From Chrysomallon squamiferum (taxonomy: Eukaryota; Animalia; Mollusca), in the NCBI GenBank assembly GCA_012295275.1, contig CM022670.1:41292001-41356000 (forward strand): DNA of 64,000 nucleotides, in the 5' to 3' direction. Positions 30,001-33,000 of this stretch are shown here, piece after piece. Every line of letters starts with the position of its first letter. Within the stretch, counting starts at the first letter, position 1. The notes under the pieces were generated by a model. The model did not search any database, had not been told where the DNA came from, and worked only from the letters and a program-made list of their open reading frames with translations. Position numbers and translations under genes: made by a program.

Positions 30001-33000
30001 TTTCTCACTTTCAGCTCTATCAACTTTTTCTACATTTATATCTAACATCTTTTTTTTTTTGCTTTTTAACATCAGAAGTTTTGTTTCCAAGTTTTTCTTC
30101 TGATTTCTCTGATTTCTTCATACACTGTTTTGTTTGCATTTAAGACTCTTTGTTAATTTTCAGGTATCATTAGCTCGACCAAGCAGTGAAACCATTAAGG
30201 GAGCTAACTTGTACATAAGTGGCTTGCCCAAATCTTTGACTCAGTTGGACTTGGAGAAACTGTTTACATCTTGTGGATCTATCATTACATCCAGAATTCT
30301 ATATGACCAAATCACAGGTACTTAGCCTTCTTTGTTCCCTAATTTCAGTCCTTTATTTACATATTCAACAATTATTTGTAGGTGTCATATGCAAGACCCA
30401 GTAGTGAAGGTATAAAGGGCGCTAACTTGTATATAAGTGGCTTGCCAAAGTCATTGACACAGCACGAATTGGAGAAGTTGTTTTCACAGTGTGGACAGAT
30501 TATTACCTCCAGAATACTGTATGATAACACCACAGGTCAGATATTTTTGTGTAGCATGACACTGTCCATGTTATGCAGGGCTGATTTCAATGTTAGCGTT
30601 CATATTTTTATTTGTTACCTTTCATTTGTTTTACAATTTACATTTGCTTTGTTTCTTTGTTCATTTATTGCTCTGTTCATTACTCTTTTCATTACTTTGT
30701 TACTAACTACCAATGGCATGAATAAAGGGCAGTTGTTTCCCCAGTGCCAAGGTATTAGTGTTATTCAAGGGAATTGGTATGTTTTTACTAATTATAAACA
30801 TTACTTGAAGATGTAATGTCACTAAAAGATACTTGTTTTATTTCTTTCATTTATTTTAATGTTTTCAAAGCATATATTAGTAGTTAAGTAAACCATAAGC
30901 TGAAAGTTGTCGAGGCAGTGAAAGGCAGACGAAAGTTACTGTAAATTTAATCAGGATTATATATTTTGACAGTATGACAGTATTCACTTAATTATGAGAT
31001 GTATTTGAATTTATTTTTTATGTAATAATGCAGCTAAGGTAAAATAAATGTGTTGAAAAAATATAAATATTAATTGAAGATAAAAAAAATATAAAAGAAT
31101 TTATTTTAATACAATACATAGAGTAACTACTTTTTGTTGCCATCATGCCAACAGTTTCTTTATTCAGGCTTCACTGGAAAAGATTGTTTATACAGAATAT
31201 GTGTTTGATAATTCTGCAACAATTTGTAAAACTGATTTTATTTTTTTGTTCCTTAATTACATGTAATATCAATGTATTTTTTTTATTATTATTGTTTCCT
31301 ATTTTCCAGTAGTGTTATGGCAGTTTGTTCAATTTATGGTTGTAAGGAAGGCTTTATAATCTTACTTATGTGCTTATTTTTCGTTTGCCTTTCAGTAACT
31401 GCTAATAAATGTTAGACATTAGCTAAACCCAGTTAATTAACAGATAAAATAAAATATATATGTATAAAGTTTCTTTTAAAAATTGTACTTCATTGTTACT
31501 GTTGTTTTATTTATTTATCTATCTTTAAATTATTGTTTTGTTCTCTTTTAATTGTTTTGTATTGAAGCAAAAAAAAAAATGTTTTCATTTTATTTATTTA
31601 CTTTTTATTTTTCCTGTTATGCTATTTAAGCAACAGTGAAATGTTTAAAAGTATATGAGAAGCATAAGAAGAGGAACAATTAAATTTAAAAGTTTTAAAA
31701 AAAGAAATGAACATTGAATAGCTGGGTAAATAACAGATGAAAAGTCGTTTTTTAAAGACTGTTCATGATGTGTTTATTAAAGCAAATTACCAACTTGAAA
31801 ATTAATTTATAATAAAGAAAATTAATATTAGCTACCCTATTTATAATCGTTTATTGAATACTACTAAAATATCTATGTGTCTATCGTTTCTTAAATTAAA
31901 TTACTTAAAATTAGTTCATACAATACTGTAAATGCATTATTATTATTATTTTGTTTTTTGTTTTTGTTTGGGGTTTTGTTTGGGGGTTTGTATTATTTTT
32001 TCCCCTTGGGATTTTGGAGATTATTTGAAATATTTAAAATACATGTTTCTTGTTTTTACTGTGTGAATAGTAGTAGGTTAATATATATATATAGTAAATG
32101 ATTCAGGACATAACTGCTGAAGCAGTTTATGCAACATCTGTGACCATGTAACATTTCTGTTAACTGAATTTTTAAATTACTGCATCACTGGTTATAATTA
32201 AAATTCACATTTTTAAACAACAGTAGTAATTAGGTATTCTTTGTTGTTCATTAATAAGTGTTCAGTTAGTACTAGGACTCAGAAGCTTTTTGTGATGGGG
32301 AAAAGAATTCTGAGGTGTATCTTTCATCAAAGCCAGCATAGCCCAATTATATATACTCTGTTACCAACCACTGGATAAACAGGAAATTGCAGTGATGATA
32401 ACCAAGGAATAATTGTTAAGTGTTAAATATTGTTTATTACTCCTGTGTAACTGATGTCCATAATAGAAACACGAAACTAGTTCTGTGATATTCAGATGAA
32501 TATTATTGTGGCTCAGAAGACAGAAACTAGCTGTGTTATTCAACTGAATATTGATTATTGTAACAGATGTTCTTGACCTGAGTGTATATCAGCTGTTATA
32601 TTATTATCATTTTAATGTTTATTGTGTTCATGCTTTTGTTATTGTTGATTTGAAATTTATGCAGTTTAAAATGCATATGTTGCTTTTTCTTGATAGTATA
32701 CACACACACGCACACACACACACATATACATGATGATGATAAATGGGTAACAGTGAAAATAAATTAATTTCAAGTTAAAATGTGAAAATAGAAATGAGAA
32801 ATAGTTCATTATTTTTATATTTGGTGCAACAGTACAGCTTTAATATTTGCTTTTCATGTTTCATATGTATTAAGTGGAAAGAAACCTAGTGTTTGTCTAT
32901 ATCTGATTATAACTTCATTGAAATGAAGATATTGCTTGTTTTATAACATGCTTTATTACATATTTATTTTTAATGTGAAAGTATACATGCTTAGTAAAAT

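Follow-up and report, generated by a model that had tools for sequence, protein, structure and literature searches.

The locus described here raises the question of whether one elav gene can exchange part of its folded RNA-binding region through a duplicated exon and, if so, how a single copy is chosen, what the exchange changes in the protein and how old the arrangement is. The window, by which we mean the whole 64,000-nt stretch analysed (Chrysomallon squamiferum, assembly GCA_012295275.1, contig CM022670.1, positions 41,292,001 to 41,356,000 of the forward strand), had been annotated beforehand in a sequence-only reading, which proposed two mutually exclusive versions of the exon at the RRM1–RRM2 junction.

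An elav exon pair spliced one copy at a time

The host gene is elav. ELAV-like isoforms of Gigantopelta aegis match the peptide of the first copy, exon 4a, at 100% identity, and each spliced form has 2 substitutions in 357 residues relative to G. aegis. An RRM1–RRM2 tandem is followed by a hinge and RRM3, as seen in three Pfam RRM_1 stretches (on the near-identical G. aegis protein) and in a structure model; the closest solved structures are HuC, HuD and HuR (E 7e-80 to 3e-75), with Sxl behind at 2e-48. Five sequencing runs contain the stretch, four of which are RNA (contigs from one study), and together with tblastn they define the following features.

25496..25546, + strand: upstream coding exon of 17 codons, serving as an alternative 5' start (located by tblastn with G. 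aegis isoforms)
26860..27085, + strand: exon 2, N-terminus and first half of RRM1; joint 27085>29490 in 4/4 RNA runs, AG/GT ends
27826..27894, + strand: 69-nt in-frame cassette exon in an RRM1 loop, corresponding to the insert of G. aegis isoforms X1, X3 and X7
29490..29593, + strand: exon 3, completing RRM1; in RNA, 29593 is joined both to 30164 and to 30382
30164..30317, + strand: exon 4a (type A, first copy), covering RRM1 beta4, the linker and RRM2 beta1-alpha1-beta2 (elements from the structure model), with S19, L28, D29 and Q49; joints 29593>30164 and 30317>33219; equals G. aegis isoforms X1/X3/X5/X7
30318..30381, + strand: intervening intron, 64 nt, with a single predicted branch-point-like motif (A at 30342, 25 nt from the 4a donor)
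30382..30535, + strand: exon 4b (type B, second copy); joints 29593>30382 and 30535>33219; equals G. aegis isoforms X2/X6
33219..33465, + strand: exon 5, rest of RRM2 and start of the hinge; joints 33420>35074 (runs X1–X3) and 33465>35074 (run X4)
35074..35434, + strand: last coding exon, end of the hinge, RRM3 and stop (RNA joints, tblastn, frame check)

A loose RNA end at 26859 in runs X1 and X2 maps to 25516, within the upstream exon. No joint to the cassette exon is present in the four RNA runs; octopus isoforms carry an insert at the matching place. Use of the alternative exon 5 donor at 33420 shortens the hinge by 15 residues without a frameshift, the short form being found in runs X1–X3 and the long form in X4. 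One X1 contig joins 33465 to an acceptor at ~33910 inside the last intron, a possible alternative end lacking RRM3. Elsewhere in the window, a zinc carboxypeptidase gene has its exons at positions 13566–18209 of the minus strand; one of them matches Pfam M14 (E 0.001, under the curated cut-off), and by its motifs the gene looks like a cytosolic carboxypeptidase.

Exons 4a and 4b are a tandem mutually exclusive pair, spliced one at a time. All four joints of one-of-two splicing are present in the RNA contigs, those of 4a in four of four runs and those of 4b in three of four, all GT..AG; neither a 4a>4b joint nor the joint 29593>33219, which would skip both exons, occurs in any of the four runs, whose contigs drop rare forms. 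One X3 contig traverses exons 2, 3, 4a, 5 and 6. The short side of the 4b joints is only 26–28 letters long, and a contig of X4 covers all of 4b with no mismatch. Contig depths were 67.5, 15.9, 14.2 and 6.1 for 4a and 155–170, 24.9, none and 3.2 for 4b; as these are not expression measures, we dropped the idea that the missing 4b in X3 is a sign of tissue choice.

Reading frames agree with this pattern. With either exon alone, the frame opened by the first ATG in exon 2 runs for 357 residues (boundaries from RNA joints). Retaining the intervening intron gives a stop at 30323–30325, joining 4a to 4b gives one at codon 59 of the pair, 378 nt upstream of the last junction, and skipping both gives one 229 nt upstream of that junction. 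The prior claim that only one-of-two splicing makes full-length protein, double inclusion and double skipping being unproductive, is thus borne out by frame computation.

The coordinates, lengths, splice sites, spacing and residue identity that the sequence-only reading gave for the pair were all reproduced: each exon has 154 nt, an AG before it and a GT after it; the two lie 64 nt apart and share 42/51 residues and 116/154 nt. By codon, 23 are identical, 19 synonymous and 9 non-synonymous. Exon 4b has H28, E29 and N49, and, by column counts, is without the C19 and K/R39 usual for type B. The 33 nt that precede the 4b acceptor are free of AG, and the 64,000-nt window contains no third exon-4 copy. 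A crude count gives dN 0.15 and dS 1.3 between the copies, which, with both types present in 19 mollusc genera, supports an old duplication under purifying selection, as had been proposed; both exons appear in transcripts and neither copy is decaying neutrally. In run X5, a single intron-spanning contig without splice joints covers 30045–31932 at even depth with no mismatch inside 4a or 4b, so the pair is not an assembly duplication. An assembly artefact or a decaying pseudo-exon is therefore ruled out, given the RNA joints of both copies, their protein identity to G. aegis isoforms and their presence together on the X5 contig, and dN lies far below dS.

Distribution across animals

The pair had been read as a way in which this particular gene is diversified; the duplication is real, but it is not peculiar to the gene, being shared across molluscs and, very likely, by annelids and bryozoans. 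Counting the cluster members listed for 30 proteins and the matches listed, 20 genes from 19 mollusc genera have both types with unchanged flanks, spanning a vent snail, abalone, limpet, caenogastropods, pond snails, oysters, a mussel, a scallop, clams, octopus and the chiton Liolophura. One Mya gene model holds both types in tandem, type A first. Automatic NCBI models contain both forms as isoforms (e.g. G. aegis XP_041359060.1 and XP_041359061.1; also Liolophura, Octopus, oyster and abalone). These records thus show the same two forms, but label them by X-number only, without any mark of an old pair of exclusive exons. Genera for which the listings gave a single type (e.g. Sinanodonta, Aplysia, Lottia and Nucula) did not enter the pair set; there, the absence of the other type may reflect annotation. 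Two elav genes are present in Babylonia areolata, both with the exon pair (P0187/P0183 and P0064/P0314).

Outside molluscs, the spionid annelid protein Malacoceros ELAV1 and a relative are identical at 187/187 residues after the exon and at 37/51 inside it, and two Bugula models at 134/134 before the exon and 34/51 inside. Among cloned annelid elav sequences, both types occur. From the metagenome contigs scanned, 80 of 112 loci were kept: 14 with two AG/GT-bounded copies (8 distinct), 51 with one intron-flanked copy and 15 that continue from exon 3 without interruption (transcripts or genes poor in introns). Where the flank was long enough to match a phylum outside the exon, the best matches were annelid for L006 and L010, bryozoan for L007, L009 and the L046 group, and bivalve for L033; L032 is bivalve by the exon itself, and L023 was put with L010 by exon similarity.

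Eleven single-copy loci were checked by tblastn, and five have both neighbouring exons with one exon 4 between them. These five (L016, L026, L031, L059 and L066) form two groups of divergent elav genes, possibly representing losses of the pair or other paralogues. Locus L002 matches Paralvinella at full identity and stops 390 nt past 4a, too short to show a second copy. In three protein searches, none of the 120 matches listed for each carried the name of a brachiopod, nemertean or phoronid. Arthropods show one type in 15/15 horseshoe-crab and 12/13 crustacean cluster members, according to the cluster listing rather than a genomic test. The prior statement that vertebrate ELAVL genes have a single copy agrees with the absence of human ELAVL from a catalogue of 236 tandem-exon substitutions.

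Residues that distinguish the two forms

In the structure model, exon positions 1–3 form RRM1 beta4, 4–13 the linker (poorly predicted), 14–19 RRM2 beta1, 27–35 helix alpha1 and 40–47 beta2; HuR numbering was transferred through the 4ED5 alignment. Fifteen exon positions lie within 4.5 Å of RNA in HuR, as given in the available part of PMC13635762. None of the nine differences of the window falls on these 15 positions (chance 0.03). Across 30 A/B pairs, the 15 contact columns hold 10 differences, compared with 323 over the other 36 columns, and 13 of the 15 never differ within any pair.

Four swaps are consistent across the 30 pairs. Position 49 differs in 30/30. Position 19 is S in 30/30 A and C in 23/30 B; position 39 is K/R in 1/30 A and 24/30 B; position 28 is L in 30/30 A and polar or P in 28/30 B, a count that is circular for database isoform pairs, whose A/B labels were set by similarity. 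Linker differences vary in direction between species. The nine differences of the sequence-only reading are as it listed them, but those it placed in RRM1 beta4 and the linker are not conserved, the conserved ones lying in RRM2, and its suggestion of a cleft reshaped by the exchange of exons has become weak.

Judged from sequence conservation, the two forms are likely to differ in RRM2 surface or regulation rather than in base recognition. The conserved swaps, at the end of beta1 (S/C), in the first turn of alpha1 (L/polar), in the alpha1-beta2 loop and in the beta2-beta3 loop, may adjust how the protein binds partners, how its domains close, its affinity or its modification.

The two forms may still differ in RNA binding, since Val102 and Gln141 of HuR (exon positions 10 and 49) engage RNA during domain closure in the simulations described in the available part of PMC13635762, and one contact position, 8, differs in 9/30 pairs. 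In that case the two copies would act on affinity or specificity for RNA itself, by way of the linker and the beta2-beta3 loop, which close RRM1 and RRM2 on the RNA. This would suit an exon that encodes the whole linker and half of RRM2, the differences at position 49 in 30/30 pairs and at position 10 in 19/30 (both residues named in the simulations), the excess of K/R39 in type B and the location of position 19 inside RNP2. We nevertheless regard this possibility as doubtful, given that the contact positions are free of differences in the window and nearly so in all pairs, and that the linker changes have no consistent direction across taxa. Position 8 corresponds to HuR Ser100, which we take to be a phosphorylation site; it is Cys in 12/30 A and 3/30 B, including type A of many bivalves, abalone and limpet (examples are P0005, P0019, P0178, P0273 and P0380).

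Origin of the pair and avoidance of double inclusion

The order of the copies is known for nine pairs, namely the window and eight others. The first copy has S19 and L28 in 9/9, and the second has C19 in 8/9 and a residue other than L at position 28 in 8/9. In a protein tree of the 30 pairs (51 columns; G. aegis omitted as a duplicate of the window), the A/B label changes once, with support 92/77, and none of 500 shuffles gave so low a number; a DNA tree of the nine pairs supports the A/B split at 55/83. Trees that force separate origins are not significantly worse by the AU test: p is 0.11 when bryozoans are grouped and 0.075 when molluscs are. As the trees split by copy, yet phylum-wise clades are not rejected, one duplication in the common ancestor of molluscs, annelids and bryozoans is likely, though not shown. 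These phyla split in or before the Cambrian.

Independent duplication of this exon in two or three phyla, the copies converging on similar residues, agrees with the AU tests, with the brevity of an alignment of only 51 columns and with the repeated independent origin of ACOX1 tandem exons reported in the available part of PMC8373072. It would need the same exon, the same order and the same pattern of S19/L28 against C19/polar-28 to have arisen in three phyla, and the best trees, protein and DNA, split by copy; we consider it improbable. The window pair itself has, by crude count, a pS of 0.62, the lowest of nine and below all 72 cross-species A–B values (minimum 0.65). Together with the missing C19 and K/R39, this suggests that 4b of the window may have undergone partial gene conversion or may share codon bias with 4a.

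On balance we think it probable that the two exons are tandem duplicates spliced singly, likely of one origin, that yield two proteins of equal length, 9 residues apart, likely differing in RRM2 surface. What is shown of this are the one-of-two RNA joints, the occurrence of both forms across molluscs, the pairs of the same order in other phyla and the almost invariant contact positions. The choice between 4a and 4b may be regulated by tissue or stage. A bolder version, tentative and to our minds unlikely, is that a duplication in stem Lophotrochozoa created a half-domain switch of ELAV, a pan-neuronal regulator, kept in order for more than 0.5 billion years and set by cell type (e.g. neurons vs progenitors or non-neural tissue), in which the RNP2 cysteine and the helix surface would lead to distinct partners or regulation; splicing would then take the part that HuR vs HuB/C/D play in vertebrates.

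In the window snail, the predicted branch point 25 nt from the 4a donor would block double inclusion sterically, lying under the threshold of ~50 nt from donor to branch point proposed for OGDH in the available part of PMC7969005. The intervening intron, however, measures 64 nt in the window vs 95–729 nt in the other eight pairs, and the branch-like motif near the acceptor is predicted 66–694 nt from the donor in six of these, with no such motif in two. Since the short intron is local to the window snail, we rejected steric exclusion as a conserved mechanism. Joined pairs stop at codon 58–66 in 9/9, which makes decay of wrong products a likely common backstop; in all lineages, double inclusion or double skipping would lead to an early stop and removal by nonsense-mediated decay.

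As for RNA structure of the Dscam type, in which intronic pairings compete or shorten the intron, no shared docking/selector pairing was present among the five longest inverted repeats of the nine regions, shuffled sequences shorten the donor-to-branch distance by folding as much as the real ones, and one of nine intervening introns folds better than its shuffles, that of the bryozoan-like L046 (z -3.0), which contains a 29-bp stem (L046:3117-3233). The annelid-like introns of L010 and L023 have a common 11-bp stem by eye that alignment did not recover.

Hu proteins bind U-rich sequence, and the flanks of both exons are ~50% U. The copies could accordingly be functionally equivalent and the pair kept as a splicing-coupled rheostat, for instance in ELAV autoregulation via unproductive products, which the early stops after double inclusion and double skipping would supply. 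We rate this as very unlikely: equivalence does not predict copy-specific residues kept across phyla, other introns of the gene are also 37–48% U, and the RNA contigs contain no unproductive joint.

The elav pair is mechanistically an ordinary case of tandem mutually exclusive exons, notable for its host gene and age. We found no description of a 4a/4b-type elav pair in the literature, where subscription papers and preprint supplements could mention such isoforms; the available parts of PMC6915785, PMC2546398 and PMC10488267 do not describe one, and the supplement of PMC8373072 has 0 matches to ELAVL. As far as the available text of each source goes, three known systems come closest. U2AF1 exons 3/Ab (PMC5224494) are likewise duplicates used alternatively, and an RNA-processing factor thereby has two isoforms, but they span 22 residues, are of jawed-vertebrate age in the human catalogue, belong to an unrelated gene and have an experimentally mapped repression mechanism. 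OGDH 4a/4b (PMC7969005) is a tandem exclusive pair with branch points 25–41 nt from the upstream donor, comparable to the predicted 25 nt of the window; the short distance is conserved in OGDH, whereas among the nine elav pairs it is short only in the window snail. The oyster alternative oxidase (PMC5589949) is another molluscan gene in which a duplicated exon gives two mRNAs, but encodes a metabolic enzyme.

Within the ELAV family, the available parts of work on honeybee elavl2 (PMC8553928) and on insect and vertebrate ELAV structure (PMC2529313) describe a single elav gene diversified by splicing, as here, with conserved junctions of the same phase bounding the region and mini-exons in RRM loops and the hinge, as in the window. 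There, variation is confined to unstructured loops and the hinge, whereas the window gene swaps a folded half-domain; the term 'mutually exclusive' has 0 occurrences in the main texts of the two papers. The elav pair contradicts the insect-based view that ELAV splicing spares folded RNA-binding domains. As elav is a standard neuronal marker in mollusc and annelid work, probes, clones and knockdowns would so far have pooled two RRM2 versions, or chosen one unknowingly, if these are under an ancient switch, and existing RNA data provide a cheap test of a tissue split between the two forms. In Aplysia, an ELAV family member has been tied to memory (available part of preprint 10.1101/2020.08.14.251389); ApELAV1 and ApELAV2 are unlikely to be this pair, as their predicted weights differ, while the 4a and 4b forms are equal in length.
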